DNA of 55,516 nt, filler included, from Sphacelaria rigidula (GCA_964200075.2; 6 parts of 6 records of this genome joined end to end with filler, not necessarily neighbours in it), one strand, 5' to 3'. Positions 10,090 through 47,883 are shown, counted from the whole stretch's first letter. The notes: a model not told the origin generated them from the sequence alone. A program made the numbers and translations.

Positions 10090-11043
10090 GTGAGACGGTG
10101 ATTGTGTGTGTGTGTAACAATGTTTTCGTGAGATTGGGAGTGCAGAGGATACTATTGAGGGTGAAAAGCGGTCAACTACTGAATTAATCGTTTCAGTTCC
10201 GAAATTCCCCTCCACGAGGCCCGATATGCTTTCTGTAGTAGCTTGCCACTGAGGCCCTTGATGTCCCTGAGTAGGATATCGACGTGTAGCTGCTGTAAGT
10301 ACACGGCAGTGATAGAGGGGAAGAAAAGCAAACACGGAAACGAAAAAATGGCTAAGTTAAAGCGAATGATCAAAGCCACTCTCGATCCGCGCTCTACTCT
10401 CAATCTCACGAAAACGTTGTTGTTGTTCTTGTCTCTGTTATGTGTGGGAATTTCAAGGCCTTGATTAACGATCAATTATATTCCTCTTCATTTTTTTTTT
10501 CTATCTCTCTTCAATCAGTTTTGTTTTGTCCGTTCCATCTTCTTTTCTCCTTTTTTTTTTACTTTTTGTTAGCGAGTGTTTCCGTTTTCTTCACCTTGGG
10601 CACGTCTATTGGATAGTGACCAATGAGTGGGTCTCCCGGGGATCAGTTAATGTGCGACATATCAATCAAATGCCGACGCCAATGATATTGTTTTGTTGCT
10701 GTTCATTTTGTTGTTATTGTCGTTACATTTGAAACTTTCTACGTAGCTCCCCCCCTCCCCCCCCCCAAAGTGCCTGGTTTGGGGAGACGAAATGTTCACG
10801 TAAATCGAAATCGAAAAAGCCGAGCACAACGAGCAGCTGGGGATTCCCACGCTTGGGTTTGTTCTCGCCAATGTCGCCAATATGAGGCGCTTCATGCAAC
10901 CTGAACCTATACATCAGGCGCTGCATGGCCATTTTTTTCGTGACATTTTTTTACTGTTTCTTTGGGGGGGGGGCTATCGTAGAAAGTGTCACTTCACATT
11001 TCTCTTCAGTGATGTTATTGCTGGTTGCTCATGTTCAGGGATT

Positions 11044-11450
11044 GAGTGATGCTACGGCAGGGGTGCACAAATATTCTCTGAGGTTAGAATTGTTGGGAGC
11101 CCTGTATCTCATCCAAAGCACCACTTACGAAACGTGTGAGAGACAGTACGCCAGGATTACTGTTTCAATGTGCTCGAGATATCCCGAATGAATTTGCAAG
11201 CGGGGATGCCTTGACCCTTTTTCTTGTGCAATCTAGAATCGCTAGCAGCCCCTGAACCAGGCAACATTTCCACACCCTAGACAAAAGAATACACGGTCAG
11301 AAAGTGTACTGCGTACAGTATTGACTATTGCGCCTATTGTAATAGACAAACTATTCCATACTGTACGCAGTACATTTTTTTACGAAATAATCTGTTGTCC
11401 AGGGTGTGAACATTTCGCGCAAAACGTGCACCCCTACCGTAGCATTGCTC
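11044..11450. mobile_element. Non-autonomous TIR element, family C (GAG...CTC ends, 4-bp TSD GATT, Sola-like)
   Basis: TIRs gagtgatgctacggcaggggtgcac / gtgcacccctaccgtagcattgctc; GATT on both flanks; a related truncated copy lies at ~18270-18441. Confidence 0.85.
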
Positions 11451-12353
11451 GATTGTTGCCTTGTTTGCTTGTTATTATTCATGTGCAGCGTTATTTTCAT
11501 TGTGACCGTTTTTCTGTTACAGCCGGTAGTATTCATTTTTACGTCCAGCGTGGTGAGTTTTTTTTGTTGACTTCTATGTTAGTGCTGCCTCCCCGTAGTG
11601 GCTCTAGTGCTGTTGCGGTTCATTTGTTACGTTGCCGTTGTTCACCCAAAATTATGATGGCAATAATCTCCTTGTAGTAACAGCACATAGGCCTAACGAA
11701 CTTCATCACACAACCCCCCCCCCACACATTTTTTAGAATATGTCGACATTTTCCGTGAACACAAACTCAGCCCCCCGTCCAGCGCACTTGGTTGATTTGT
11801 GGTATATTGCATTTCTCTTATGCCAAAAAATAAAAACCCTACCCCAATCCAAACATCGTTTTCCCCCTTTTTTTCACCCTTCACCCCAGCCACCGATGTG
11901 CGAAAAACTCAGACAAAAAAATCAATTCTTGACTCTTTTGAGACTGGGCCTCCAGAACGACCAATGAGGCTGATGAGGAATGACGTGTCTTGCGTCTGCA
12001 CGCAACAGTGGCTTCATGTTGCTGAAAACCCATGTATGTAACCGCAGGGTTTAGGAGGAAGACCGAAAGTTTCATCCAATCTATTTTTTAGGTGCAGGTA
12101 CAAACTGTAATTCGGGGATTGAGCGCACCAGGGAATGTGCAGATGTACCAAGTAGCATGGGTTACCGTGGAGAGCTTTCAACAGGAGGTTACGACCGGCG
12201 GGCCGCCCGCTACTCGTGGCTTTGGATGATATTATTGTCTCCATCACCTTGCCACAAAGCCTTTTGTGATCGGGGTGGGCCGCGATTTCCATACTCTGGA
12301 CAATGGAGACAATAATGGTCAACTGCTTCAGCAATAGGCACGGGGGAAAACCT

Positions 12354-14130
12354 ATCGACATATATTGTCGAACGCAATAGATGGTGAAGCACATCTATTG
12401 ATAAGTATTGCATGGGACAATAGATGTTGCAATGGTCGATCGATAGCCTATGGCAATAACAATATATGAAGATCACTCGCCATCGATGGATATCGTGTAC
12501 CGCAATAGATTCTGGGATGTATATATCGATAGCCATTGCCATAATCAATAGGTTTGGTGAGCCGTCCATCGACAGTCATTGCCGTTATCAATACGTTTAG
12601 TGAGCCATCCATCGATAGTCATTGCCGTCACCATTAGATTAGGTGAGCCATCTATCAATACCTATTACCGTCATCAATAGATTAGGTGAGCCGTCTATCG
12701 GTAACCTCTGCCGCCAACAATGCGTTTTTTGGTATCTATCAATATGGGCATCGTCGTCAACAACCGATCGTGCTCGGGAGCACCTATCGATAGCCAGTGA
12801 CGCCAACGATAGCTTTTGAAAAATAGGTTGCTCACTGCAGTGGTCTCATGACATCAACGGCAATACCCCTTCTCCATGAACACGCAACGACCTGAGGCGA
12901 TAGCTGGCCATAGCTTCTGTGGAATAAGGCGGGTACATACATCGAAATATGTGCATACACAGCGCTAGTGATCGACGCCATTCAGTTGTTTTTGCGGTCT
13001 GCGATAGATATTAGTGGCCGCGATTCAGATTACATTGTGACCAGCGGTAGACATTGGTGGTGGCGATTCAGATTCTATTGTGACCCTCAATAGATATTGG
13101 TGGGCGCAATGGATATCCTATTGTGAGCAACGATATGTATTGGCGGCCGCGTGGCAGATCCTTCTGTGATTATCAGTAGACATTGGTAGCCACAGTTCAA
13201 AGCCTATTGCAACAAACAAAATGGATCGATAGACACGTTGGCCCCTCCATTGTCACGGCAATGGTACATTCTGTCCCTTGTCCCGAATCTATTGTCCCCT
13301 ACAATAGCTATCGATAGACGTTGATGCCAGTCGATCATGACTGACAATCAACAGTGACAGAAAAAATTTCGGGGCTACTGCAGCGCCAATGTTCTATGAC
13401 ATAGTCTATTGTCCAGGGTACAAGCACATCTCACCCACACACAAAAGTACTGTAAGCGCTCATGTCCATCGGAGGGACAACCGTAAGTACTCACACCACA
13501 CCAACAACAAAACTTGTAAACTTTTGTCCATACATATTGCGGAGCCCTACAAAATACAAGCGTTCCGAAGTTGTAAAAACGTGATGTCATATATTCACAA
13601 GTAGTATCATTATATACCCACTGCATGTCGGCCCGCGGCTTCTCTACCGTACCTCGACGGAGTATAATATGCTCTATACGTAGTATGTTGTGATGTAGGT
13701 GTGGCAATAGACGACAGAGAATACCTATCGGTAGGCATTGTATACCAGAGTAGATTCTGGTATGCATCTATCGATATTCATTGCCGCCATGCATATATTT
13801 ATACGTGGTCTATCAATAGCTATTGCTGTCATCAATAGATTTGGTATACAATCTGTCAATAGCCATCGTCATCAATAGATTCGGCACGCGGTCTATCGAT
13901 AGCCATTGCTGTCATCAATAGATTTGGAAAACTATCGATCGATACGTCTGGTCCGTCGCAATAGATTTTGGTGTAGGGCCACAAGAGACTGCTGCCCGGA
14001 CAAAAGTGTGGGCAATTGGTCCATCGATAGACATTGCCGACGACAATAGAAAGATAAACTTGCCGATCGATGGCCATTACGGACGATAATATTGGCATCT
14101 ACTGCGGAAGATTTTATTGCTATCGCAATA
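12354..14130. repeat. Three blocks of diverged 43-bp-period tandem repeats (12354-~12810, 13005-13219, 13727-~14130)
   Basis: Unit starts at 12439, 12482, 12525, 12568, 12611, 12654, 12697 and at 13005, 13048, 13091, 13134, 13177. Confidence 0.85.
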
Positions 14131-15494
14131 GATGCCGTCTCTTGTCCAGGGTGTGGCGATTTCCCTCTTTGCTGCAGGCGGCAAACTCTCTTCGAAGGGC
14201 ATGGGCATTGCGGCGCACATATATTACAGTACAGTACGCCCCTCCGACTGCAGCAGCAGCTGCCGCTGCATACTCCTTTACACGTTCCGAGTAGTTCTCC
14301 GCGACGGAGATCAGCTGCCTATACACAGCTTGTTTGTTCCCGTCGACTACGTACGACCTCACTGCATGCTGTACCGCCTCAGTACAGGGATACGTAGAAC
14401 TCATGCCTCTAGCTCCGTCTCTCGTTCCACAGCGTAGCTAGATTCAGTCGCATTGTGAACATGATCACATATGTAGTACGGTACGCTATTCCCGTATTTC
14501 CCCCGTGCACCCTGTGTTAGTGTAATTTCTACGTTTCACTATAGGATGGTGATCCCAAAATAAACTCGGTGGAGTGGGGGTCGGACCTATATAGAAGGCA
14601 ATTAAATGAAAAAAGATCGGGAAAGCGAGCCCCGACCATCGCGGCTTTATTTTGTTTCGAAGGTTTTTTTGTGGGCCAGGGACGGGGTACACACACTAAC
14701 TTGGCAGTGATATCAGTCCCGGGGACAGCCCCCCCCCGCTGGTCGTTCAGATTTGGTCGATAAATTCCGCCTCGCCGTGATTGGGCAGGTTGCTCCCAGA
14801 CATTATTATTATTATTTTACGAATACATGGTGAACCCCTTGGTACTGAAGATCAGTCCCAAAAGAGTTAAACCACTCAATATTTTTTTTATCAACCCTTC
14901 TTATGTGACCTCACCCACGGAACCGGATTGTACGAAAAAAAACATTTGTCTGGATTCCAACTCTCGACCTTCATAACTGTCTGGAGTCTCCTGTATCACT
15001 TAGATTACGACTATCCAGTGGACCGACGCGCCCGTGACCCTGATCACAAAAGCCATTGTAGAAGCATTCATTTTTCGTCGTCCGAAATCGACAAATAGTG
15101 GCCAGAAGTACTCGCAGGGAACGCCCGAGGAAGGTAGAGAATGACCTATACCTTGCCATCAGGTCAGTTTCAGGGAGGGGATAAGGCAGCTCTGGTGGAT
15201 AAGCCGTAACTTTTCAGCTGTACTGAACATCCTTACGCTTGTTTACTGCCGTGTTGCGATACTTTGCTTTTTTTTTTTTTCACTTCCGTGTGTAGGAAGG
15301 AACCAACACCGCCTGATATCGGTAAGACGTCTGAAATCGGGTCAAAGTAAACGTCTTCTGTGGGCCGCGAGAAGAACGCACTGGTTACCGTGCCCTAGAA
15401 TGACCAAAGACGGTAAAAGGTATACCTTTTCGTTACCGCTGCCCGCGATTAAGCAGCACAAACAACCTGTAGTGAACGCCTGCGTTGTGTGCAA

Positions 15495-16075
15495 GAGCAA
15501 TGCTACGGTAGGGGTACACTTTTTTCTCGAAATTATGTCTAGTTCAGGGGCTCCTAACGATTCTAGATGCACCTAGAACTCTCGATTAGAACCTTCCCGG
15601 AATTTTATTACTTGATTTTTGTGTAAAGACCGACATTCGGATCTTTGGCGGGGCTGACAGCCCCAACTGCCTCTCGCGTGCGCAGGAGGCGTTTTTTGTC
15701 AAAATCGGCGCATGCGGCGCCGTTTTGAGGTCTGCCAACGCGACACTTTGCGTAGGGAACGCTTCACACCTCCCTCGCCCGAGGGTCCTCGGTATGCCTT
15801 GGGTTAGGGTTAGGGTTAGGGTTGGTGTTATTAAAAAAAAAAAAATGTTTCCGAGAAATTTCGTCATCGACCAAGTGGTGAACACACCTCCAAAATCCTC
15901 GCTGCCCCCACACTGTATCCAAACGGCCAAAAAGTACAAAATGTATACCTTTTCCTGACCGCTACCGTTTGAACTAAACCGCAAGGTCTACTCCTGTAGT
16001 CATCACTAACTAACTCGCGACCTCTTGTTTGCCTAAAACCGTTTTTTTTCCTGCTCCCTTACGATTGGGGGTGCG

Positions 16076-16109
<34 letters not shown>

Positions 16110-16470
16110 CATGACCCCCGCCGTATATTTGCAGCGAAAGAAAGTTCACCATCTTCTGGTGGCGATGAGCTCGGCGATGGAGGATTCATGTCGGACTTCG
16201 GCGGCGACGACTTCTCAGACGATGAAATCGTCATTGAATTCGATGATGAAGATTTTGACATGTAGATCGTCCGTAGGTTTGTGTTCGCTGTTTTGGCGGG
16301 AGTTTTTGTTGCTGTGGCTGTGGTGGAGTGGTATCACGGTGGTAGGAATGCACAATTATTTCCCTGAGGCTCTTCGCTTCAAGAGCCCCCTATCCAAGGG
16401 GAAAACATGTGGGCTCATGTGTGCAACCTCAGGCACACCCTTTGACCTGAAAAACGTACCCCTACCGTGG
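15495..16470. mobile_element. Longer family C TIR element, right TIR truncated; contains (GGGTTA)3 and an acidic exon-like segment
   Basis: Left end gagcaatgctacggtaggggtacac; right end gtacccctaccgtgg. Confidence 0.55.
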
Positions 16471-17092
16471 TTTGTTGGAAGTGTGTTACTGTTGTTTTCG
16501 AGGTTATAAAATCGCTCTTTCCCCTCGTCTCTAGAGACGTCAGGTCTCTGTGAGTTGGCGTTGAAGTTCACGACTGGGTTGCTTCACGAATAAAAAATAA
16601 CCGAAAACCAAGTCAAGTTTAGGTGAGGGTCAGTGTGTTAGACGGCAAATGTACGCAAAACAACGCTCGAGCTACGCGGAAAGATCTCAGGGACAGGACA
16701 CCACAACAGCAGGCGTGGGGAGGAGGGGGGGGCTCCTGGCAATGGTGTTATACCGGTGAACAGTGCTGTGTTATTACCCGGAGAAGTGATGTAATGGTGT
16801 TTGTATCTATTTGCGTGAGCTACTGTGGTATAACGCTCTTGGCACGATGAAACATACGTTTACGTTCTTCACTTGTTTTAGAAGGCAGGCGGGGGACTGC
16901 AAGGTAGCGGTCGGAACAGCACCCTTTTGGGGGGAAATAGGGGTGTGGTTTATGAGCGTGGTGTCAACACCGAGCACACACACTCCTCTCTTCCCTCTCT
17001 CTCACACACCCACACACAAGTGATTGCCATTGATCGATACCCCACCTGACGGCGACGCTTCCTCTCCTTCTTCAGCATCTCTTCGCTTAGCC

Positions 17093-17453
17093 TGTGTGTG
17101 TTGCCGTCCCTTTTATTTTGGACGTCGGTCTAATACACTTTTCGGTATATATGGTGGGCGCACCAGCCGCGGTCACACAGGAGGAAGGCCAACACAGGAG
17201 TTATTTTTTTATTTTCATCTGTTGTTAATTCTCCACGTTCCTCCTGCGATGCTTGCCTTTCTTTTTTATCGCGAGAGGAGGTCAGCAGTCCCTCTCCCTC
17301 GTCGACTTTTGAATCGAATTTTTGTGTACCCAAGACATAGTCGCTCTCCACTGTTGAGCGTTGTGTGAGAAAAATCCGAAATCGCTCCGAGATTTGAACC
17401 CACGACCCAGCCGTCAGAAGGTTCCCGGGTTACTAACTGAGTCAACGAGGCGA
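17093..17453 (-). mobile_element. tRNA-headed SINE
   Basis: Minus-strand head has an A-box-like TGACTCAGTTAG and a B-box GGTTCAAATC; body is shared with the other copies; (CA)n tail. Confidence 0.8.
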
Positions 17454-17497
17454 GTGGCAAGTAAAATCAAATGAATATATATATATATATATATATA

Positions 17498-18057
17498 CAG
17501 TAGTGGGCGGTCTAACTATTTTGGGTTTTTTGGGGGGTTTCCTTGCGTACTACTCTTCGATAGAACTCGAAATTGCCTGCGTCGGTAGATTTTGGCACAA
17601 CAAAGTAGATCATCCTTGAAACACAGTGCCCAAGTCAGGGTTAGTTGGTGTTATCGGGCGAAACGAATAAATACCCCCTTCACCAGGAGGGTGTTATTGA
17701 CTGTGAAGCACAGTTTTTCGGCCTAGTGCAATGAGTAGGCAGAATTTCTAAAAAATAAAACTGCACGTTTCTTTACAAATATTACCGGGACGGGCTCGAT
17801 CGACCGAAAATACAGAAGAGTAAGAATCTGGGCTGCTGAAACGTGGCAGGACGCCCGATGACCGGTCAGCCCGTAAGTCACTCAAAATTGAGTACCGATG
17901 ATTTTTTATTATTGAAATATGAAGCGGATGGATACAAAAATCTTCAGATCCTCGACGTGTGATAGGCGGTGGCAAGCGAAAAGAGCCCAAGAAAATCGCC
18001 AACTACGAAAAAAATAACAAAATGCCAGAAAATTAATGGTTAGACCGCCCACTACTG
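17498..18057. mobile_element. Tc1/mariner-type MITE inserted in a (TA)n microsatellite
   Basis: Perfect 19-bp TIR CAGTAGTGGGCGGTCTAAC; TA repeats on both flanks. Confidence 0.85.
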
Positions 18058-18841
18058 TATATATATATATATATGCGAGCAATGCGACGGTAGGGTGGGG
18101 GCGGGGGCGGGGGGGGTATTCGATTCCAGGGGAAAATGACTCATAGGTGTGTCAAACGAACTAACACACTCGCGGTGAGCTTGTATATGGGTAAAAAATG
18201 ACGTCAGGCATTATAGTTGAGTGTTTTTTATCGGTAACAAGCGCGTTCGAACAACCGCTACTGCTTTCAGAATGATGCTACAGTAGGGATGCACAAATGT
18301 ATCCTGAGGTTATAATTGTCAGGAGCCCTTTATCTCGTGCAAAGCACGACCTATGGAAATATGTGAAAGTACGCCAGGATTACTACTCCAACGTGCTGGG
18401 GATATCCCGAATGTATTTGCAAACGGGGAGGCCCTGACCCANNNNNNNNNNNNNNNNNNNNNNNNNNNNNNNNNNNNNNNNNNNNTTAATTAATTAANNN
18501 NNNNNNNNNNNNNNNNNNNNNNNNNNNNNNNNNNNNNNNNNGTACAGGAAGCCTGCGACCACGCTGAATGAAACCGTTTATTTGTCTCCGACCGGTCGGT
18601 GATGATGGAGATAGTAGTACTAGTAGCAGTAGTAGTAGTAGTAGCAGCATCACTATATATATATGGAATTGTAGAGTAAATAAAGAAATCAAACAACGAC
18701 GACGACCACATTGAACAAGTAGATGCCGCGCAGTTGCTGGCCATGCTGTTTGTTCCTTATCCATCCGGGACCCCCTCCTACTGGTGTTGAGGTTGCTACG
18801 AAGGAACACGTACACAGAATTGTGCTCGTCGTAACCCTAAC

Positions 18842-18922
18842 CTCGACGACACGCCGGGCATCGTTCTCGACGACGCACCGGATTAATATCGCCGTGGTAT
18901 ATCGCCTTGGTGCTCCCTTCAA
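18842..18922 (-). CDS. Possible isolated 81-nt exon, unknown product
   Basis: ttttgtag|TTG...GAG|gttagg; LKGAPRRYTTAILIRCVVENDARRVVE; no recognisable motif. Confidence 0.25.
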
Positions 18923-19282
18923 CTACAAAATCATTTCCGAGGAAAAATACTTTTGCACCTCCAGGATACAATTTCACGTGTCGTTCATCCTCAACAAAAA
19001 GCACCATCCTCAACATAGATGATCCGCTGTTTTTATCTGCTGTTCGAAATAAATCATATTTTTTGCCGAAATAGATTGGGCGAGAAAAGGATCGGTTTTG
19101 AACAGCTTGTCCTGCTGTCCGAAATATATTCCTTTTTGCCCGATTCAAATCAGGTGAAGAGGAATGTACCTCGGACAGGAGGACAAGCTATTGGAAATAT
19201 ATATATTTCCAGATTTTGTACCAAAATATTTGGAATTTTCAAAAAACAAAAGTCAGGGTTTTTACCAAAACACTACCACATG

Positions 19283-19436
19283 ACTGTGCAGGGCTTTGCC
19301 GACAAGCCTACATAGGGCTGTAAACCCAACCCTGGGGAAAACCTTATCACAACGCTATGAGGGGTACAGGTTTAGATTTTCATTGTAAGGGTTTTTTACA
19401 AAGACTGTGGAGGACCCTGTACAGACCCTGCACAGT
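19283..19436. mobile_element. Small putative MITE
   Basis: 11-bp inverted ends actgtgcaggg / ccctgcacagt. Confidence 0.45.
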
Positions 19437-19572
19437 GCGCCCCACAGGGTGATATCTGTCCACGGGTGCTTCTCCAGATACTCTGGTCATTTTTCTACGT
19501 GTCGTGGTTCCCACGAACTAGAGGTTTGCCCGTCAGGTGCCTTAAGCGTACCTTAATTGGTACATTTACCTC

Positions 19573-20340
19573 TAGGGAGGGTTCGGTAGCCACCACGTCG
19601 TCATGACCGCATCGACAAACTGATGCTCGGTACTTGACGGTGCCAGATGCCGAGACGACCCACCTGCTCGGTACTGACAGGTACCAGAGGCCGAAACGAC
19701 ATTTCTGCTCCGCAGTCACAGGTACCAGATGCAATGAGTGAGAGGACCGCGTGCTTAGAGGACCGCGCCGTAGTTCAATATACCTCAGGATCGACGTTTT
19801 TCAACGCCAATCAGGCCAGTCTCTGTAGGTACTACGCCCCTGACCGTAACCCTAACCCTAACCCTAACCCTAACCCTAACCCTAACCCTAACTCTAACCA
19901 CAGGGATATTCAAACTCCGATGCGGTCCTCTAGGCACGCGGTCCTCTCGCGCATTACACCAGATACCAAAATGACCCATCTGCTCGGTACTTGCAGGTAC
20001 TGAAATGTAGCTTGCATGCGGTCCACTTTGTCATTCAAGACAGCTTCAAGGTACACACAAGTCAAGACCACGAACCTTGCTTCTACCCTGCGCGGAAACG
20101 AATCGCAGTGCCTTGGTCTTCACTTGCGTGCTGACCTTGAAACTGCCTTGGATGGCAACAAAATAGACTGCATGCAAACCACGCTTCAGTACCTGCAAGT
20201 ACTGAGCCGAAAGGTCTTGTCGGCATGTGGGGATCTCGTAGTACCGAGCAGATGCGTCATGTCGGCATCTAGCACCTTCAAGTGCCGCATCAGTGCGTCT
20301 AAGCGTTCATGACGACGCGGTAGGCGCTGAATTCTCCCTA
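19573..20340. mobile_element. Long-TIR element (family D, ~100-bp imperfect TIRs) hosting a family A MITE
   Basis: tagggag...cgtcgtcatga...ctgatgc...ctgctcggtact is mirrored by agtaccgagcag...gcatcag...tcatgacgacg...ctcccta. Confidence 0.8.
19730..19958 (+). mobile_element. Family A MITE with internal (CCCTAA)7, 5-bp TSD CCAGA
   Basis: ~37-bp TIRs; ccaga on both flanks; telomere-type tract at 19850-19891. Confidence 0.9.
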
Positions 20341-20354
20341 AAATACGCTGTTGT

Positions 20355-20608
20355 GAGTGATGCTACGGTAGGGGTTGCACTTTTTGAGCGAAAATGTTTC
20401 TCGGGGTGTTGGACGGATCATTTTTAGAATCGGTATCATTTTCACTTGAAAAATACTGAAAATGATGCCGATTCACGAAACGATCCCTGCGTGCATTTCC
20501 ATGTCCTGTCCCCGGAGATTTGGGTTGCACAGTAAGCCCCATATATTTGGGGTCCTGCAAAAACGAGACCCAGAAACAAAAAGTGCAACCCCTACCGTGG
20601 CATTGCTC
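20355..20608. mobile_element. Family C TIR element, 4-bp TSD TTGT
   Basis: 31-bp TIRs gagtgatgctacggtaggggttgcacttttt / aaaaagtgcaacccctaccgtggcattgctc. Confidence 0.88.
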
Positions 20609-20615
20609 TTGTCAA

Positions 20616-20832
20616 CACACGCGGCCATTTGGCTACCCCCCAAAATGCCTCCGGAAGGATGCGCGGCCCTCCAGAGGCAAAACAAGCCTCCGGAGGCCTT
20701 CAATCCCTCTGGGGGAAACCAAACACCACCGACCTGGAGGGCTGCGCACCCCTCCGGAGGAATTTGAGGGTAGCAAAATGCCTTCGGAGAGATGCGCGAC
20801 CCTCCAGAGGAAAAAACAAGTATTCGGAGGCG
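20616..20832. mobile_element. Family B element, one end only (CACACGCGGCCATTTGGCTA, internal CCTCCGGAGG repeats), cut off by a family A MITE
   Basis: Matches the reverse complement of the right part of 27116-27452. Confidence 0.8.
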
Positions 20833-21043
20833 TGTGATGCGTGAGAGAACCACGTGCTTAGAGAACCGCGCCGTGGCCCGAAACACCTTACGATCGAAGT
20901 TTCCCAAAACCTATCGTGCCAGTCCCCGCATGGACCACGCCCCTGACCCCAACCCCAACACTAACCCTAACCCCAACCCTAACCATAGGGATGTTCAAAT
21001 TCCGATGCTGTCCTCTAAGCACGCGGTCCTCTCACGCATTACA
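20833..21043 (+). mobile_element. Family A MITE (211 bp), no clear TSD
   Basis: TIRs plus a degenerate CCCTAA tract. Confidence 0.88.
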
Positions 21044-22209
21044 GAGAAGACGTAACTTACAACAGAATCGATGTAACGGCTAAGAAGACTACAGTAGCGC
21101 AACAATTATCAGCGTCAGGCTTCGTGACCACTCCGAGGAGCGTCCCACGACCACCTGTGAACAGGTTCGGTGAGCCTCGACTTGTCGCTAAGCGCACACG
21201 GAGCGAGCTCTGAGAGGAACCCGGAATGTGGAACAGCAGCATGGATCAACAAAGGATCTCTCCTTGAGAACGATGTGGATTGAGTCTACGAAAGAGTCGC
21301 ACTACATATGTGCGCGTCTGACCCTTGAACAGTGCGTCACGACCCCGACAAAGTGGGTACATGGTATTTTGGGAAAGCAGCACAGCACCCGTTGCCGTCT
21401 ACAGTAATAATACAGCCGGAAACAAAGTACAACTGATGATATTTGAGGGACGGCACTCACCTGTGCTCGTCTGGCCCTACAGCAGTCGCTCGCAAGCTGA
21501 GCTAAGTGGGGTCGGTGATTTATATTGGGAGGGCGGCTTTATATCTGGGCGTGTCGAACACAATAGCTTATCTTCGAAAATAGCGTTCGGATTCTTTGGT
21601 GGCAAAATATCCATGCGCTTTACTGCTGAGCAGCCGTAGCTGCACTAAAAATATATAGAATACGTTCGATTCCACTACATCCTGTCCGTACAAAACATTC
21701 AAGCGGCGGCGGGCAAGCCTACTACTTCAGTGGGAGACCACGTTTCAAGCGTCAGGGTTTTCGTGTTTCTCCATCTCCCTTCTTCTTTGCCTTCGTGGCT
21801 TGAGTGTTAAACGGCGTCATTCTGAGTAGAACGGGATTGTCACGGTGGACAACGATAAGGGCATCCAAGGGGCGCTGAAGCTCTTCCCGAGAATTGACGC
21901 CAGAAACGAGGCCAGCTCCAGGGAGTATGGAGGCAAACTTCCCGTTATACTGTAATTTTATGAGAAGGAGGTCGCCGACATCCTGCAGGGCCAACCGAGA
22001 CCGCAAGCCACTCTAGTCGGCGACGATATGCCGTCTGGTGATGCGGTAGCTCATTCAAAATGTGAGCGAATCAAGATTACTTCAGTTTTTGTTTTTCAGC
22101 ACGAACCTCCCCGCGCACAACACCGTAAAACGACACATGGGCGAGACGTACGAGGAAGGGGGAGACAAAGGGGAAGCGGCGTGAGTTGTCCTGGAGGCGA
22201 AATGCGGCA

Positions 22210-22775
22210 CCAACACGAAAGTGGCCGGGAGGGAGTCCTACGATAAAGCGCACTCCATCATGATGCAGTCTAGAGATAATCCAGACGATCCCGTGTATAT
22301 TATCGACGGTGATCGCGATCTGCATAACAACGCCGCGGCCTGGTGTACTGCGTGAGAGGATCGCGTGCTTAAAGGACCGCGCCGAAGTCCAAAACACTCC
22401 AGGATCGACGTTTTTCAAAACCAATCGGGCAAGTTCCTTCAGGGACCACGCCCCTGACCTTAACCACAACTCCAACACCAACCATAACCCTAAGAATAGG
22501 GGTTTGTAAAGTCCGATGCGGTCCTCTTAGCACGCGGTCCTCTCCCGTATTGCACTGGGGCCAAGTTTGCGGCGTTCAGGTGGGAGAGGTAATCGACGTA
22601 CATGGTGCTGACCATATGTCAAATGTCCGCTGAAATAAAGTCGTGTTTCTCGCAACCAGCATTATGAAGCCTTTCGTACTCGGCAGGAATGGCGTGGGGA
22701 GTTATTTCTAGGTACCGTTCGTCAGCCAAGTGGAGGAAGTGCCGCCGGTAGAAGAAGCGGCATTGAACGTTTCTC
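22210..22775 (-). pseudogene. Decayed exon-like reading frame interrupted by a family A MITE
   Basis: Removing 22344-22554 and one TSD restores a continuous frame (...YVDYLSHLNAANLAPGRGVVMQIAITVDNIHG...) with one stop; acceptor ctgtag at 22776. Confidence 0.45.
22344..22554 (+). mobile_element. Family A MITE (211 bp), 4-bp TSD CTGG
   Basis: TIRs; ctgg on both flanks. Confidence 0.88.
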
Positions 22776-23232
22776 CTACAGAGAGCGAGCCGACGGTAGG
22801 TTTATTTAGTGCCAAAACTGGCAATACTAGGGCATCAGCAGCAAGTTGAGTAAGCTTTTACCCAATCGTTTGACATACGTAAACCCAATGACGCAAAATC
22901 GGATTTTGTTTCAAGAGTGATGGTAGCTTGGGTTCGATGGGCTTTCCTATCTCTCATTGCTTTTACTCTCCGAACTCGCTGAACTCTCTTTCAGCTCCCT
23001 GCGTTTTAAAGTCTGTGATTTATTCTGTTTTGGCCAACAGTGCCCATGAACACGATCTGACTTTTGTCTATTACCACAAGACGCGAGTGAGCTTCACAAC
23101 CCCTGCGCATCCTCTGCAACTCTGTCTAGTACGGCAGCACCACGTAACACTAGCCTTCCAGTAGGTTACGAGCCTCGATACGTTATCACATAGGTCAACA
23201 CAAGCGAGGAGACGTCCCATCGAAATCGTCAC

Positions 23233-23443
23233 TGTAATGCGTGAGAGGACCGCGTGCTTAGAGGACCGCATTGGAGTTTGAACACCCCTATGGTTAGGTT
23301 TAGGATTAGATTTTGTGGTGGGGTTAGGGTCAGGGACGTGGTACCTGCAGAGACTGACCCGATTGGTTTTGAAAAACGTCGATCCTGAGGTATTTTGAAC
23401 TACGGCGCGGTCCTCAAAGCACGCGGTCCTCTCACGCATCACA
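23233..23443 (-). mobile_element. Family A MITE (211 bp), 5-bp TSD GTCAC
   Basis: TIRs tgtaatgcgtgagaggaccgcgtgctt; gtcac on both flanks. Confidence 0.9.
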
Positions 23444-23736
23444 GTCACATCAGCGATCGCAAGAAGATCCAGAAATGACATCTTCTCTGAAACGATTCCA
23501 GGTACAAGAAAAATTTGCACCTTGTGGTGAAGATAAATAAGGCGAGACAGTCTCTCGAATGGATGCACTCTACGCACGTCATCATTTCATTGGCATATCT
23601 AGAGAACTCTAACATCATCTCTAGAGGGGAACGGTCCGCCGAAGTTCAGGGCGGAGAGAATCATTTAGATGTAGCGTCGCCACCGTCAGCTGCCGGATCT
23701 ACTTGAAGAACAAGCCGCATCAGAACCCGCTCCCAG

Positions 23737-23771
23737 GGTCCTCTAAGCACGCGGTCCTCTCACGCATTACA
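23737..23771. mobile_element. Solo family A TIR
   Basis: ggtcctctaagcacgcggtcctctcacgcattaca. Confidence 0.8.
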
Positions 23772-24931
23772 GCCGTCCAGTCGTGCGCGCTCAGCATCGG
23801 ATGGGGCAGCGAAGACGGCAGAGGCAGCAGCGGCAGTTGGGGCAGCTTTAGGCACTTGAAAAGCCATGGCGCTTGCTGGAAGCGTAGCGGGTTACTCCCA
23901 TACTGTATCACAAGTGAGGTAATCGCGAACACGCAGAAAGTAGGAAATTGGGGCCACCATAACCCGCAATTATTGTTCAATATTCTGTACTTGACAACAA
24001 CTGGTATACAGCGATGGTAAGTTTCTTTTGCAGTTGAAGTAGAAGGACTCTAAAAACCATATGGCAGAAAAAGCGTGGGATGGTCTTGTTGCTAAGGGCA
24101 AAAACTCTACCAAACGAAGACACCACTGCTTATGCGGCAGCTGGATGGCATCACAACGTCATAGGGCCACGACCTTGACGTGTTCGTGACTCAAGTTTAC
24201 CAAAATCGGGACGAAGTTGTTCCCACTGGAGAAGTATTTTCGAAACGCCTGACGGATATCGTGGTTAGTAACGGATGATGTGCTTCGTGGCGGATACTGT
24301 GACCTGTGACGGATATTGATGCTTGGTGACTTCATCACAAGGACACTGAAAATCGTGCTGCGTACACACACCACGTAGTCGGTAATGTATGTTTTGGGTC
24401 ACGGTTAGCCCTACGGGATAACCGAAGTAAAGAGCCACTATTCAAGCCAACACTGAATCTGAAGACGCACATGATGCTTGGTGCTCTCATCACAACCACG
24501 CTAGATGTGACGCACTTGCACTGCGAAATCCGTAGTACGCGTACGCTGGAGGTAGGTAGGGATATCTCCTCTTCAGTCAACATCCCCACCACGATTGGGC
24601 TTGTTCAGTCAAGTGTGACGACATGCATGCTAGCTCAGGAGGTCGCGCCCTGGCCGAGCGTTTGAATGATGGGCTATTGGTAGTTGTTGCCGCGTGGGGG
24701 TCAAAGTATGAGATCAGATCCTGGAAAATGAACAGTTTGCAACGGTGAAAGGCCTGAGGAGAGTGTGGAATGGACGTCAGGCAGACGGACAGACGGACAG
24801 ACGGACAGACGGGCAGACAGAACCAGCTTGATTTTCCGTAATTCTCCAGTGCACTCCTGAAGGATTGTGCTGGCCCATCACGAGCTTGGAGCGGGGGGTA
24901 TACCAAGCGCCAAAGCGAACAAACGTATCAA

Positions 24932-26429
24932 TGTAATGGGCGAGCGGATCGCGTGCGTTTCGGACCGCATCGGAGTTGAAACACCCCTATGGTCAGGAGT
25001 AGAGTTAGGGTCAGTGTTGGTGTTAGTGTTAGTGTCAGGGGTAGAGTCAGGGGCACGGTCCCTGCAAGGACTGGCCCAAGCGATCTTGAAAATGTCGCAC
25101 ACGCGGCCATTTTGCTACCCTCAAAAATCCGCCCACACTAAAATTGACCCCTCCAGAGGGATCAAACGGCTTCGGGGGGTTTTTTCCCTCTGAAGCGGTA
25201 GATGTTCATGCGGGGGAGTTTCAGTGTTGTTCCTTTCCAGTAATATTGAGGCGGTATTTTTGAATAATAGGCGTCTCAACACAGCACACCAGACGTCTGA
25301 TGATACTGAAAGTTGACGCACGAGTGTACTGAAGCCGCAGGTAGGTGTTGACGCAGTAATTTCGTAGACCCAAGACCTTTTGTGCGCTGCTTCAAAGGAT
25401 GATTATGCATGATGCTGCAGCGATTCCAAAAACAAGAACACTTTCTGATGACAGTTCAGAAGGGTAACGATATGGAATCCACGCGGAGGGAGGAGTAGAT
25501 CTTGCCATCCTTGCTGTTTACACCGGCCCCCTGTTGGTCGAGGCTGGCACCAAGGCGGGAAAAAACCACCAGTTAAGGTTTTCCATATGTTTGAGGCAGA
25601 TGCCCTTAATTTTTATACGCCGTGCCGAGCAAGACGCGGCCGCACGACGCAGCTAAGGAGAAGAGTGCCTCCTGTCAAAGACCACTGTGGACCTGTTCGG
25701 GCAGGGGGCAACGCCTCCCTCACAGTGCCAGACTAAGCGTGGCCATCACCACGACGGTCTGAGAATGACAGGGGCAGTTGATGTAGTTTTCTTTCTATCA
25801 GAATCAATCGGATACTCTTCGGAGGTGTGCTCCCACGTAAAGATATTCACCTTTCCCTGGCAGGTGCGTGATCGCCTTTGTGCAGAACTTTCACTCGGTT
25901 CCAGAATAGGACAGGGTGCGACTTGCATTTTCTTTTATGTTTTTTCACTGATGGATCGCGGGTATTCCAGCCCTGCCGAGGCGTGGCTCGCATCGTACAG
26001 TCCGCACTACGGTACTCGTTGTACTGGCACCAGGAACACACAGTGTCAACTTCGTCGGGTATTACCGTGCGCAAATACATATCGAGAAAGAAGCCGTACC
26101 CTCTTTCGTAGTGATATGCATCCTTCCCCATCCGGCTGCCAAACGCGAGAATGCTGGTCTGTAGCGCCAGGTATTGATGCTGATGTGGAGACGTCTCTTC
26201 CAAGAACGTCTGCTTCTCTAGTCTCACCATATGTTTTTAGTCCTCAGAGTATGACCGTCCAATTAACGCCGCGGATAATGGATTATAATTTCAGTACAAT
26301 GTCTCCATAATATTGAAAAGGAACAACTCTGGTTTTGGGCAGTATAGCCAAATGGCCGCGTTTGCTGTTCCGGGGTGATCTTGAAGTCCGGTGCGGTCCA
26401 AAAAGCACGCGGTCCGCTCACGCATGACA
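24932..26429 (-). mobile_element. Older family A MITE split by a 1.27-kb family B insertion
   Basis: Family A pieces at 24932-25097 and 26365-26429 flank the family B element. Confidence 0.75.
25098..26364. mobile_element. Long family B TIR element with coding-like interior
   Basis: Ends cacacgcggccattttgcta / tagccaaatggccgcgtttg. Confidence 0.75.
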
Positions 26430-26466
26430 CCGAACTGAAAAGCCACGAAGACAAAAACTAAACTGC

Positions 26467-26677
26467 TGTAATGCGTGAGAGGACCGCGTGCTTCGAGGGC
26501 CGCATCGGAATTTGAGCACCTGTATGGTTAGGGTTGGGGTCCGGATTAGTGTTGGGGCTAGGGTCAGGAGCGTGGTCCCTGAAGGGACTGGACCGATTGG
26601 TGGTGAAAAACGTCAATCCTGGGGTGTTTCGACCTACGACGCGGTCCTCGAAGCACGCGGTCCTCTCACGCATTACA
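26467..26677 (-). mobile_element. Family A MITE (211 bp), 4-bp TSD CTGC
   Basis: TIRs; ctgc on both flanks. Confidence 0.9.
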
Positions 26678-27115
26678 CTGCTAAAATCTGCAACGACTAC
26701 TTTCAATTGTCGATATCTTGTTACTATACTGTTCTGTCGCCAGCGCACTCAGGCTCTGCACAGCATCGGGAAACCGAACCCTATCCCCCTCACCCTCCCT
26801 TCCCCTCACCATCGTATGTTTACAGGCTCCTGAAAGCTGGGAACTAACTATTTTTGTGGGAACACGCACAGAACCACGGGATCGAAGATATGCAAAATGG
26901 TATTATCCCTAAAAGGCACTGAGACTCAAGGCCCCAAAAAGAGGTTGCGGGCCGTTTTCCCATGGGCTACAGTATGACGCTTCACATTTGAGGCTAGAAG
27001 TTGTTTTCCCTCCGGCCCAAAAGGCCAAAAAAACTGTTCGTGGTCTTTCAGAAGACGCAGTAGCCCACAGGGGGCTAAATTGATTTATTCCATGCGCACT
27101 TTTCCGGTTGAGTCA

Positions 27116-27452
27116 CACACGCGGCCGTTTGGCTAGCTCCAAGATACCTCCGGGTGGATACACTTTTCGAGCCTCCATCCAGAGGAATTAAACGCCTCCG
27201 GAGGGGTGCGCGGCCCTCCACAGAAGATTTTTTGGTTTCCTCCAGAGGGAATAAACGCCTACGGAGGCTTATTCTTGCCTCTGGAGGGCCGCGCATACCC
27301 CCAAATTCCTCCGGAAGGGTGCGCGGCCCTCCGGGTCGGTAGAATTTGGTTTCCTCCAGAGGGATGGAAAGCCTCCGGAGGCTTGTTTTCACCCTGGAGG
27401 GCCGGGCATCCCTCCGGAGGCATTTTTGGATGTAGCCAAATGGACGCTTGTG
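27116..27452. mobile_element. Family B MITE (337 bp), CAC...GTG ends, many CCTCCGGAGG/CCTCCAGAGG subrepeats
   Basis: TIRs cacacgcggccgtttggcta / tagccaaatggacgcttgtg; possible 2-bp TSD CA. Confidence 0.8.
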
Positions 27453-29112
27453 CATGCCACGATGGGGGAGGAGGGGAGGGGGGGGGCGCGTTTCGTCCAC
27501 CAAGTCCTACTTGGAATCGACGTTTACAGCAGCAACGAACAGCCGATCCTGATTTTTGGGGTTGAAACATAAAATGAGGTTGAAGTCCCATTTCTCTATT
27601 GCAGGGAAGATACGAAAGAGTAACACAGAGCGAAAGTATCTTCCCCCCCCAAACTCCGCGGGAGGGCTTAACCGTCAGACCGCGAGAGTAAGTCACCTGC
27701 TGAATCGGCATNNNNNNNNNNNNNNNNNNNNNNNNNNNNNNNNNNNNNNNNNNNNTTAATTAATTAANNNNNNNNNNNNNNNNNNNNNNNNNNNNNNNNN
27801 NNNNNNNNNNNCCCCCCACACACACACACCTTAGTGCACCGTAGCGAAAGAGAGGCATATAATCAACATGGTGAAACGGCTATTATAAGGCAAGCAACTA
27901 AAAAGTACGCCCTCCCGCCCCCCCCCCCAAGAAAAAATAAATATACGGCACTGCCGATCATTCTGATGGGGTTCTGCGGCTGAAGGATCAATTATAGTTG
28001 GGTCACGCTCGACTGTCTCAGTCACGGTATGTGTGGATAGATAGGAGGTGTTTTTTTATTATCATGTTGGGCAAGTATATGTCGAGTGTAGTGGCGGAAT
28101 CAAGGTGTTTCGGAGTCCTCATTTCTGACGTGTAGTCTCTGTTTTCACTTGATTTTGACGCAGGTACGTATACGATGTAAATTACGGCTCTCGTGAATAT
28201 CCACGTACAGCCTGAGTGTTTCGAGTCTAAGTATTCTCGACCGACGTGTTTCTGTTTCGCTTGAACCCCTGCCCCCTTCGCCCCGGGCCGTCGTAGCTCG
28301 GAAGTTGTCCTTTAGGATGAATCGCGAAGAATCGGGACTGTCGGTCGGTGCGTTTTTCCCGGGGGAAGCTTCTGCATTTCCCATGTATACACAGCCCCAC
28401 AACTATTGTAGGGTACGATTGCGGAGATCGACATGCTATCATGGTGTCCGTCGTCGTTGCAAATTCGCCGCCTGTTATTGGGGATAGTTGCGCCGCGCAT
28501 CATCACCTGTCTTAGTTCCGAGGTGCCCCTTTGCCCAGTGGATACAGAGCTGTATGTACGTTGTTGACGTATTCTCAGCTATGTAGTGATGATAACTGCT
28601 CGAGCTGAAACATTGTGCTATTATGTTATAGTGACAAGGGCAAACTGCAATATACACATCCGTCGAGATAACGGTAGTTCGACAGCGGGGCCTGTCGCCT
28701 GCTACATAGACATCACTTTATCTTTTTTCAGCATCTTTGTGAAAACGTCGAACGTGAGGTCAAGTGAAGTGATCTGCAATTATACTACGAGATGGACGAC
28801 GAGACGGGGAGGAGGGGAGGTTACGCAAACTCACCGTCAATTCGCCAGTGGTCGACATCGTACTCTTCTAGAATAAATGCTGAATACCACGTGTGTCCCC
28901 GTATCGCCCCCAATACACAACGAAACCACCTGTGCCGGAAATCCTCGGGCAAGAGGGACTGCACCTTTTGAGAGTATGCTCTCTTTTCATCTATCCAGGC
29001 GCATTCCTTGATTGTTCATTCCCAGTTGGGTCTCCGTTAAAAAAACGATGAACAACTTTCGACACGTACGTCAAGGATCGGAACGACGCAGGACCTGTGG
29101 TTGATTCACGTA

Positions 29113-29114
<2 letters not shown>

Positions 29115-29162
<48 letters not shown>
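29115..29162. repeat. (CTG)n microsatellite
   Basis: About 16 uninterrupted CTG units. Confidence 0.95.
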
Positions 29163-29164
<2 letters not shown>

Positions 29165-29672
29165 AGTATTAAACAAGCATATACGCTTTGAGAACGCGTG
29201 ATGAGTAACAACATCCAACATGTATTTAGCGTTCATTTACATGAATGCGTACTTTGAAGGTGTACAAGACCATGGGAGTAAGTAAGTGCACTTCTTGTTG
29301 TGGGGAAGCAAAAAAAGTTCGCTGCCCGAGATTGCCTATTTTGAGCGCTGGGCAACATTTTTCGCGTAAATATGGCCAGGGGGAGTAATGTCACCTCGAC
29401 ATGACTTACAACTTGCCCCACAGCGTGGAAGCCTCCGGCATATATATTACTACGTAGTATAAAACTTACTGCCCACGACTAGTTCGAGTTTTGGGTGAAA
29501 CACAGTAAATCACGCAAAAATTGCACATTCTCCCCGAAATATGCCGTCAGGTAAATAGCACTTATTGCTTTCCTCTTTTTAAAAACACTCGCTCCCGTTT
29601 CAGTCCGTTCCCACAATAATAAGTGGAATGAGTAAACGAAAAAATATATCTAGGATATCAAGGTAATGGTAA

Positions 29673-29851
29673 GGCCACCTCTTATCTGAGAGTTTGAAAT
29701 TTTTATTTTGCAACAATTTCAGAGGATTTTTTTTCTTTGTCATCATGGTGAACGGGTACAAAATACACAACTGCTGCAAAGAAGAAAAAACTCCTCTGTT
29801 TCAGAAACTGTTGCAGAATAAAATTTAAAACGCTCCCATAAGAGTTGGGCC
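29673..29851. repeat. Imperfect inverted repeat (hairpin)
   Basis: ggccacctcttat...ttttattttgcaaca...agaggattttttttctttg pairs with caaagaagaaaaaactcctct...tgttgcagaataaaa...ataagagttgggcc. Confidence 0.75.
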
Positions 29852-29881
29852 ACTACTTCCGGGTGAGAAAAAAGTCATGTC

Positions 29882-30289
29882 GAAAACTGCCTTTTCGGCC
29901 CTTCTCCGTCGTTCCATGCCCGAAAAGAGGGCTTTAGGCGGATGTTTGACCCCTTGGGATGACCTGCTCTCTACTCGTTGAAAAGGTTGCAGGACACAAA
30001 TAAATTTCGTTTTCCGGTGGCCGCAGGTTTGTTATTGGCCAAGACTACATTCTCAATGACGAAGAATGGTCAAGCTATTTTTTCCATCATTTTTTTTGTA
30101 TCCATGATGAAAAAAAATGACCCTTTGTTATTGGCAATGCAAGTTTGGCGAAAAACAAAACTGCGGCCACCGGAAAACGATGTCCTGGAACCGTCTCAAC
30201 GAGTAGAGAGCAGGTTATTCCAAGGGATCATCCGCCCAGCCCTCTTCTTGGGCGTATAACGACGGAGAAGGGCCAAGAAGGCAGTTTTC
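29882..30289. repeat. ~408-bp foldback (long imperfect palindrome, centre ~30095)
   Basis: Arms pair throughout, e.g. cccttctccgtcgtt/aacgacggagaaggg, acctgctctctactcgttga/tcaacgagtagagagcaggt, cgttttccggtggccgcag/ctgcggccaccggaaaacg. Confidence 0.9.
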
Positions 30290-32446
30290 AATAATATATA
30301 TTTTTTCACACATGATGAGAAGTTGCCTCTCATAGTAAACCCAGCAAAATGTACACGCACTCACGCAGAAGAAGGGAGTCCGAGGCCGTCCGAGGTACTA
30401 CTGTAGTTCTAGCAGGGGCATCTCGAACTCGAGGTTCTCGACATAATCAACTGAAAATAACTTTCAACATACCCGGAATATCGAGTTTAATCAAGATACC
30501 TCTTCTAACAAGAATGAAATTTACATTGAAATATACCGGGAATCTCGAGTTTCGAGATACCTCAAATGATGCGTTTCAATTTGCCCTGACTCAATTTCCC
30601 TACAGTTTTCAAGTCTTGCGCCACCTGGTTATGTCACCTGTTGAATCGGCATCACTTTTACCTCAAAAATGAGTCCGAGATGCAGGTCGCCAACCTGGTT
30701 ATATCCGATGGTAGCGCCCAAGGGTCCACTAGCAGTCAGTAGAGTTTACCACTCGGTAGTCAACAGATAGTTCTCGGAAATTTCACCTCTCCACTAGAGG
30801 CATCTAGAACTGACTATACACACGAGACAACAAATTGTCATCCGGATCGGGTATACTTTTTTCAAGTGACTGTTGATGCCGATTCAGCAGGTCACCAACC
30901 TTGCGAGTCTGTCACAGGCTCACACTCACTAACTTACAGTCAAAAGTCTAACTAACCCGTTTCGAGCCCCTCACTTTCTCTGCAGAATCTCACCATATAC
31001 TACACTGATATTCCCGCCAGTCTACGGAAGGCCTTTTCCATCACCGAGTGAACATCTATATCTTTGGTATTTGTGCATAGCGCCACTAGGACACAGGTGC
31101 TTGATATGAATTGACAAAACAAAGTTTCAGCCAATAGGCGCAATGTAGCCCATTGCGCATGGTCAAGGGTAAAAGAGTGAAAGAGTGCATGGTTTTTGTT
31201 CTGTTCATGCATAATTTTGCGCGCGTCGATATGTTTCCATATACAACAATCAATTCACAGAATAGTGGCGTGGCATACGCAAGATTCAAATGGACTCCTT
31301 CGGTCAAGGCTTCAACCATTTACACCCGAAACCCGAAAGGGCGGGTCATTTATCGAATCGGCATCATTTTCATCCGGAGGTACCTCTCGACAGAGTTGTT
31401 TGCGTCTTGACTGCGAAGAAGCAGCTTATGGAATTCATGAGCTAGCCCCAACTCACCACCACTTTTACGTATGATTACGTTCGTATACCGTTGATCGTAC
31501 AAAAATCATCTACCTCAAACTCTCCGTGGCCGAAGGGATAGTTTAGCCCTTTGGCCACCAGGATGGATCATATGCTCTTGTTATGATATTTCGTCAGTGA
31601 AAGTGATGCCGATTCACCACATAATGGTCTGGGTCTCAACGGTTAACCCTTTCACCGCGAAGCTTCAGGAAGCTTGATTTCAGAATCATTCATGTCAAAA
31701 TAATGACAATTACTCATCATTCAAAGGGTCGGCCCTTTGATCGCCGGGGTTTGACCTGGTAACCCGCTCCTTGAGAGTCAGCAGGGCGAATCATGAGTTA
31801 AATCGGCATCATTCTCACGTGAAATATCACTTGAAGACACTGGCTCAACCGGGCGTCAGAAGACTGACTACCAGGTGTGCGAGATGTTTTCTACAAGGGC
31901 ATTTATTGACCAAAAAAATCATAATAGTACACGATGTGGTGCATTGGCATACATCCCTGGACTCAAATGGACTACTCCGCGGTCAGGATGATGAGCCTTG
32001 ACGACGGCAGTAGTCGTTTCGGGATGTTTACTGCAGGAGATTCTATACTGGAAAATATAAAATATATCAAGTGAAAAACTTGTTGTTCGCATTGGCATAC
32101 GTGAGATTCAAAATAGTATCTCCGATATCATTTGGCCTCGTCAGATGGTCGATTGTCGATGTTAGATGTTAGATGGATGTTTCGCCTTCCAAACTGCGCA
32201 CACACCGACCAACTGAAGTGGTAACGGAAAACACTTCCAGACCCCTCGAAAAATTTGGTCGTTTCCGACACACGAGGTTAGGTTGAGGGTGTTGGGTGTT
32301 CATCTCTTGCGTCCACGTTTATTATAAACGCTGCCCACACATAACTGAACAAGACGAACTGGGTTGTCCAAACGACGAAGTACTTGAAGACTTCGGCAAG
32401 GTATTTTCAGATAAACAAGAGCATCACTGACCCGGAATTCACGAGA

Positions 32447-32590
32447 ATGGACAACAATGGATCGAGTCAGCCGTGGAGTATCCCGTCGGGCGGCGGCGGC
32501 CCAGGCAGTCAGCCGCCGAGCGGTCGCCAACAACAACAAACTAGGCCGGAGAATCAGTGGGTCTTCAGGAAATGCAATCACTGCAATGAG
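32447..32590 (+). CDS. Possible first exon of a small Zn-ribbon protein
   Basis: MDNNGSSQPWSIPSGGGGPGSQPPSGRQQQQTRPENQWVFRKCNHCNE, then GAG|gtga; read-through gives CNHC-x7-CFFC. Confidence 0.3.
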
Positions 32591-47696: not shown

Positions 47697-47883
47697 TGTA
47701 ATGCATGGGAGTCGTAGTTCGAAGCACCTCAGGATCGACGGTTTCCAAACCAATCGGGTCATCACCTGCAGGGCTCACGCCCCTAACCCTAACCCCAACA
47801 CTACCCCTACCCCTACCCCTACCCCTAACCACAGGGATGTTCAAATTCCGTCCTCTGAGCACGCGGTCCTCCCACGCACTGCA
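47697..47883 (+). mobile_element. Degenerate family A MITE with left TIR partly deleted
   Basis: cctcaggatcgacg...ccctaaccctaaccccaac...agggatgttcaaattccg...gcacgcggtcctc. Confidence 0.8.

Follow-up and report, generated by a model that had tools for sequence, protein, structure and literature searches.

A window of 55,516 nucleotides from Sphacelaria rigidula (GCA_964200075.2), the whole stretch of DNA that was analysed, contained eight copies or remnants of a short non-coding transposon of the miniature inverted-repeat transposable element (MITE) type, whose interior carries a tract of the telomere-type hexamer CCCTAA. The window is composite. N runs recurred about every 9,270 bases, at linkers of the form N44-TTAATTAATTAA-N44 (9172-9271, 18442-18541, 27712-27811, 36981-37080, 46249-46348), and the pieces between them (1-9171, 9272-18441, 18542-27711, 27812-36980, 37081-46248, 46349-55516) are six unlinked contigs of about 9.17 kb. 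Because the window is made of six joined contigs, neither distance nor linkage has any meaning across the linkers. The original prediction had read eight copies from a single stretch; all eight are real, but they do not form one locus, as seven lay on the piece 18542-27711 and the copy at 47697 on an unlinked contig.

A BLAST search of the window with the copy 23233-23443 as query (E<=1e-3) recovered the eight predicted places and nothing else, and a 25-nt core of the terminal inverted repeat (TIR) matched 12 times at three mismatches or fewer, compared to 0 matches in 100 dinucleotide-preserving shuffles. The inventory comprised five full copies, a copy lacking part of one end, a split copy and a lone end (Table 1). 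Four copies were exactly 211 bp long, while the copy at 19730 measured 229 bp, an excess of 18 bp that corresponds to three hexamers; the alignment agreed here with the lengths first proposed. The elements ended in TGT...ACA, with TGTAA...TTACA as the majority terminus. The predicted TIRs, about 37 bp long and containing the GAGGACCGC box twice, were found in each two-ended copy, although the inverted repeat went further than proposed, with weak pairing out to about 50 nt. In single-strand folds the TIR stem formed a hairpin (z = -10.2 for 23233-23443 and -7.2). Pairwise identity among copies, tract excluded, ranged from 78% to 89%, and divergence from the family majority from 5% to 23%, the copy at 23233 being nearest to the majority outside the tract (8/169 differences).

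Table 1. Copies of the S. rigidula MITE family in the window, with the element nested in the split copy. Minus strand is given for copies whose tract reads TTAGGG on the minus strand. TSD, target-site duplication.
Feature	Coordinates	Strand	Evidence
Full copy, 229 bp, purest tract, TSD CCAGA	19730..19958	-	BLAST, alignment
Full copy, 211 bp, degenerate tract, no recognisable TSD	20833..21043	-	BLAST, alignment
Full copy, 211 bp, strongly degenerate tract, 4-bp TSD CTGG	22344..22554	-	BLAST, alignment
Full copy, 211 bp, 5-bp TSD GTCAC	23233..23443	+	BLAST, alignment, fold
Solo right-hand TIR, 35 bp, remainder of element missing	23737..23771	+	TIR core match, BLAST
Split older copy, left part	24932..25096	+	BLAST, alignment
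Unrelated TIR element of about 1.27 kb inside split copy, not a family member	25097..26365	.	21-nt TIRs, 90% complementary
Split copy, right part including right TIR	26366..26429 (BLAST match from 26360)	+	BLAST, alignment
Full copy, 211 bp, degenerate tract, 4-bp TSD CTGC	26467..26677	+	BLAST, alignment
Old copy, 187 bp, one TIR partly deleted, no TSD, on piece 46349-55516	47697..47883	-	BLAST, alignment

Target-site duplications (TSDs) were present in four of the six copies with both ends. The four that had been proposed, two of 5 bp (CCAGA at 19730 and GTCAC at 23233) and two of 4 bp (CTGG at 22344 and CTGC at 26467), were all confirmed in the flanks, and CCAGA was further confirmed by an empty site. 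The copy at 19730 interrupts a tandem repeat of 41-bp units (19643, 19684 and 19959), in which the intact units show the paralogous uninterrupted site ...GGTA-CCAGA-TGCC..., which establishes the exact boundaries and the 5-bp duplication of this copy. No recognisable TSD was read from the flanks of the copies at 20833 and 47697 or of the split copy; the left side of the copy at 20833 adjoins a copy of a second transposable element (TE) family (20616-20832). A self-BLAST of positions 19000-28000 detected no resemblance of one copy's flanks to those of another, and orientations were mixed along the cluster (three minus, then plus). Together with the 78-89% identity, the unlike flanks and mixed orientations indicate separate insertions of an old family rather than a duplicated block. 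As flanks and TSDs differ and one empty site was found, the data support independent insertions of a non-autonomous TIR transposon family of the MITE type.

The contig 18542-27711 is a transposon nest. One copy is split because a TIR element of about 1.27 kb is nested within it, and another copy, the one with the purest tract, lies within a foldback-like inverted-repeat element (19573-20340). The arms of the latter (19573-19725 against 20340-20189) consist partly of the 41-bp tandem repeats. Overall, seven of the eight copies were concentrated within 7 kb of one of the six pieces (P = 1.5e-4 under an even spread), an excess that probably reflects local hopping or a preference for insertion in this region.

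No coding capacity was evident in the family. One frame was stop-free in four of the five full copies; minority bases among these five copies were nevertheless spread over the codon positions without bias (31/35/38, p = 0.71), a translated copy matched no Pfam family, and its comparison with a protein atlas gave no usable match. The reading of the copies as coding exons, despite the stop-free frame, was rejected on the lack of codon-position bias and of any family match. Scanned for Rfam families and tRNAs, the entire window returned nothing, and thus gave no sign of an element derived from an RNA gene.

Dimers of CCCTAA with at most one mismatch occurred 19 times in the window, compared to 0.17 expected. 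As originally proposed, every copy except the solo TIR carried the tract: hexamers were found in all seven copies that keep an interior, in identical alignment columns and starting about 60 bp from one end, although only one tract was pure. This was the tract of the copy at 19730, with a perfect (CCCTAA)7 at 19850-19891 within an array of about 10 units. More than two consecutive perfect hexamers occurred in only this one of the seven tracts, and a canonical four-run G-quadruplex (G4) motif was kept in only two of the seven copies. Window copies had about 7 or about 10 hexamers, a step of three units. In six of the seven tracts the imperfect units stood in a common register (for example TTAGTG followed by TTGGGG), and the array was therefore already degenerate in the common source. 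Local variants had also been amplified: the tract of the split copy was three hexamers longer than that of the 211-bp form and repeated the variant TTAGTG three times, while in the copy at 47697 the variant CCCCTA was homogenised to (CCCCTA)4.

Rates of change were compared across the five full copies. Minority bases amounted to 21/370 in the TIRs and 83/685 in the interior (p = 7e-4), so that the TIRs were about twofold more conserved, a pattern that fits selection for mobility acting on propagating lineages. Within the interior, the tract (24/210) did not differ from the remaining sequence (59/475; p = 0.80). The copy at 19730 deviated from the majority by 9.5% outside its tract and yet kept 42 perfect bases within it (P = 0.015 under simple retention). 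Slippage and homogenisation fit this copy better than simple retention, although, given the few copies, it may also belong to a separate, purer sublineage.

Evidence for the family beyond the window came from an index-free profile search of public protein sets, with a profile built from the alignment of four translated window copies. The search returned 58 proteins at E<=1e-3, 22 of which were at E<=1e-10. None belonged to a relevant Pfam family, and word-indexed protein searches with a translated copy, among near and shorter lengths, gave no match. From their sequences, the 58 proteins look like spurious gene calls over further copies of the family, which would add these 58 database clusters of open reading frames (ORFs) to the 8 copies in the 55-kb window. 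The short predicted proteins of at least 58 public clusters (P0126-P0183) are translations of this MITE family and probably annotation artefacts; in one of them, P0174, the translation of the MITE is fused to a WSC-domain exon.

The tract was spanned on both sides in 45 of the 58 matches. Its length was seven hexamers (14 residues) in 26 of these 45 and a whole number of hexamers in 41, the non-modal lengths being even in 15 cases and odd in 4 (p = 0.0096). Three or more P[N/D] or LT dipeptides, into which CCCTAA translates, were kept in 32 of the 45. The tract is thus not missing from most other copies, as it should have been if the original prediction were wrong, bearing in mind that a profile that includes the tract disfavours tract-less copies. 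Where both ends were covered, the variants of the TIR spacer matched between left and right in 12 of 12 database matches, and defined three subfamilies. These matches support the tract as an old and family-wide feature and not a quirk of one locus. A search of a prokaryotic genome collection with the TIR pattern gave 0 matches, which excludes contaminating copies in that collection only.

Concerning the superfamily, the window copies were compared with the Ginger elements, whose termini are defined as TGTNR (Bao et al. 2010, PMC2836005). The TGTNR...CA termini (TGTAA in this family), TSDs of 4 or 5 bp and TIRs of tens of bp are shared with the group of Ginger2/TDD and Ginger1, and non-autonomous derivatives are known for Ginger2, with Ginger2_NA MITEs in silkworm and Rhodnius (PMC3845634). 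Ginger1 duplicates 4 bp, CCGG or CCGT (PMC2836005), whereas none of the four TSDs found here is either. For Ginger2, TSDs of 4 bp with an AT-rich target (RTATAY/TATA) in metazoa and of 5 bp in TDD-4/5 are described in the relevant passages of PMC2836005 and PMC3845634. In contrast, the TSDs of the S. rigidula family were 60-75% GC, a comparison limited to four sites and to a preference described for metazoan elements, and both lengths were mixed within one family, unlike Ginger2 as it is described there. GingerRoot was rejected, as its 6-bp TSD and TA...TA ends do not fit (PMC6839031). The affinity with Ginger2/TDD that had been suggested was therefore upheld for the TGTAA ends and the TSD lengths and not for the AT-rich target, and no partner encoding a Gypsy-integrase-like DDE transposase with an H2C2 zinc finger was present in the window. 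Membership in Ginger2/TDD is plausible from the ends, and the family can be described as one that would work like an integrase-type cut-and-paste element.

Taken together, these observations make it likely that the family is a MITE moved in trans, in which the telomere-type tract is a hitch-hiking passenger microsatellite. The tract is read as a passenger because it diverges like the rest of the interior, is mostly degenerate, and has had variants homogenised locally. The non-coding cassette of about 211 bp would be mobilised by a transposase encoded elsewhere, for which the two GAGGACCGC boxes of every TIR of about 37 bp are the most likely recognition sites; the enzyme would cut at the TGT...ACA ends and would stagger the target by 4-5 bp. 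The pattern of ends and TSDs is typical of retroviral-integrase-like DDE enzymes; as no autonomous partner was seen in the window, we infer what the GAGGACCGC boxes do and, solely from the termini and TSDs, to which class the enzyme belongs. The tract would be cargo inherited from an ancestor shared by three or more TIR subfamilies, in which it was present in already imperfect form (TTAGTG-TTGGGG); it may have arisen by capture of telomeric or subtelomeric DNA or by telomerase-mediated break repair in the progenitor. After insertion, the array would behave as an ordinary interrupted microsatellite, decaying by point mutation, gaining or losing whole hexamers by slippage, and occasionally being re-homogenised to the canonical unit, as in (CCCTAA)7, or to a variant, as in (CCCCTA)4 and the threefold TTAGTG. 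The seven clustered copies would represent separate insertions into a transposon nest, and interstitial telomere-like sites would be scattered through the genome as a by-product of the family.

Several points weigh against this interpretation. The mixed TSD lengths (two of 5 bp and two of 4 bp), with three copies lacking a TSD, are unusual for a single enzyme, although the missing TSDs may be explained by the age of the copies (5-23% divergence). Neither an integrase-like transposase nor an autonomous partner with these TIRs was found among the 118 ORFs of the window. The rate comparison within the window takes in five copies only, the 58 matches come from public protein sets at large and are not tied to S. 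rigidula, and, since the tract forms part of the profile, copies that carry it are favoured among these matches. In addition, the clustering of seven of the eight copies is left unexplained by the data, and the persistence of the tract in register across diverged subfamilies could mean that it is retained for a reason.

This last point leads to the reading of the tract as a functional module, with sites for telomere-repeat-binding proteins (Myb/TRF-like) or for G-quadruplex formation that would serve as telobox-like elements in regulation or chromatin, as tethers to the telomere cluster or as seeds for telomere healing after breaks. The tract stands in register in three TIR subfamilies and is kept by 32 of the 45 tract-spanning database matches, and in a relative, Ectocarpus, the telomere is (TTAGGG)n, and the subtelomeric satellite of about 98 bp, with three TTAGGG motifs per monomer, is likened by the authors (PMC11541908) to Chlamydomonas, for which a part of such motifs in seeding telomere healing has been hypothesised. 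Tethering could moreover explain the excess of copies on one contig (P = 1.5e-4). Against this, the tract has diverged as much as the neighbouring interior (p = 0.80), tandem perfect hexamers beyond two and a canonical G4 motif are restricted to one and two of the seven copies, respectively, and homogenisation has proceeded to non-telomeric variants as readily as to the canonical unit. A functional module is on this evidence unlikely. Its stronger form, in which the array is kept because it recruits telomere-repeat-binding proteins, tethers each insertion and the neighbouring DNA to telomeric chromatin or a telomere cluster (and hence produces the pile-ups) and offers healing seeds, is judged improbable. 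An origin of the tracts as interstitial telomeric sequences (ITS) left by chromosome fusion or by telomerase repair at the locus was rejected, as every tract lies at one position within a repeated TIR element with TSDs.

Two further readings dispense with repeated transposition of a MITE. Solo long terminal repeats (LTRs), or a terminal-repeat retrotransposon in miniature whose cDNA is integrated by a retrotransposon integrase, would account for TG...CA ends with 4-6-bp TSDs, which are an LTR signature, and TGTNR is common to Ginger and LTR termini (PMC2836005). The window nevertheless contained no direct pairs around an internal region, the nearest same-orientation pairs differing in TSD and enclosing unrelated sequence, and no ORF for a reverse transcriptase, RNase H or integrase. 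Inverted termini are very short in LTRs, whereas the present copies have near-perfect TIRs of about 37 bp that covary between left and right across subfamilies. Local tandem or segmental duplication, or mis-assembly of short reads, is suggested by the presence of seven copies in 7 kb of a 9.17-kb contig, in an assembly of short contigs; the dissimilar flanks, differing TSDs and mixed orientations speak against it, as do the interruption of one copy by a TE and the nesting of another within a TE, and the 78-89% identity outside the tract shows that these are not collapsed or duplicated reads. Both readings were rejected on these grounds, the retroelement and the duplicated or mis-assembled block alike as very improbable. 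The passenger-tract MITE thus remained the favoured explanation.

The window contained 118 ORFs of 100 aa or more between stop codons, and their only Pfam matches were exons of a carbamoyl-phosphate synthase, between 1 and 6 kb. The gene (116-8728, minus strand) has short exons and introns of about 0.5-2 kb. By tblastn, the exons 8728-8531, 7993-7880, 4637-4455 and 3276-3172 were 100% identical to P0037 (partial, named Sphacelaria rigidula by NCBI), and for one exon, Ectocarpus records were 88% identical. These matches place the host in the Sphacelariales among the brown algae.

Other repeats were also present. The element nested in the split copy belongs to a second TIR family (25097-26365, 20616-20832, 27195-27452), the ends of which read GCACACGCGGCCATTTTGCTA and which possessed internal palindromic units (CCTCCAGAGG / CCTCCGGAGG); positions 20616-20772 and 27452-27296 were 87% identical, and no Pfam domain was detected in the ORFs of the element of about 1.27 kb at 25097-26365. 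Outside the MITE copies, a (TTAGGG)3 at 15804-15821 was followed by GGTTGGTGTTATT and an A13 tract, and could be a retroelement tail or a small interstitial telomeric site. In addition, a 43-bp minisatellite occurred at 12497-12746 (about 4.6 copies) and 13803-13944 (3.2 copies), and a nearly perfect 20-bp minisatellite (5.1 copies, 97% matches) at 38474-38575.

As had been supposed, the family does not appear to be a described one: searches of the full-text literature, Repbase, Dfam and subscription journals excepted, gave no description of a MITE with an internal telomere tract. PMC12810828 and PMC8557787, consulted on telomere repeats borne by transposons, have no bearing on the family. The closest parallels are microsatellite MITEs, namely the (GTCY)n-bearing insect MITEs of Coates et al. 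2011 (as cited in PMC6947457) and the microsatellite-associated MITEs of pineapple (PMC8449440). As portrayed in these two sources, they too are short, non-coding, dispersed TIR elements with TSDs and an internal tandem repeat that varies in unit number. The S. rigidula family differs from them in that its unit is the telomere hexamer, its array was already interrupted in the ancestor and its host is a brown alga, and the accounts of the insect and pineapple elements given there offer no known sequence or superfamily link to it. It is accordingly rated as a further MITE with a microsatellite, one in which the repeated unit happens to be the telomere hexamer.

Other mobile or repeated sequences share the telomeric motif. 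The ciliate TBE elements (Tc1/mariner) are DNA transposons that carry telomere-like repeats, which are located at the TIR tips in the description of PMC7325037; in the present family, by contrast, the tips read TGTAATG..., the tract lies about 60 bp inside and the 211-bp element is non-coding. Telomere-associated Penelope-like elements, for which PMC4522978 treats Mycosphaerella, likewise have mobile copies with telomeric hexamers of the species type, but are presented in that source as subtelomeric retroelements of fixed orientation whose 3'-end repeats prime on chromosome ends. Here there was no reverse transcriptase, and the element has an internal tract, TIR ends and TSDs. The Ectocarpus satellite of about 98 bp is likewise a repeat of a brown alga with telomere motifs at sites other than the telomere itself, although it is tandem and confined to subtelomeres according to the section of PMC11541908 that deals with it, unlike the dispersed TIR element of S. 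rigidula. In the stronger functional reading, judged improbable above, this MITE family might even be the source of the TTAGGG-bearing subtelomeric satellites of brown algae.

A functional role of the tract, if true, would be far more interesting, as a transposon would then be spreading functional telomere-type sites; no observation requires one. Under the passenger interpretation, the family has consequences for genome annotation. Interstitial telomeric sites are usually taken as relics of chromosome fusion, which would be the wrong reading here, and scans of brown-algal assemblies for telomere motifs will catch copies of this MITE. As the copies also attract spurious gene models, masking them is worthwhile. 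The many dated insertions, in three TIR subfamilies and with arrays of 4 to at least 10 units, constitute a natural series for the decay and re-homogenisation of hexamer arrays. Should the family be as common as the 58 matches suggest, it would rank among the main sources of telomere-like sequence at interstitial positions for at least one genome of a brown alga.

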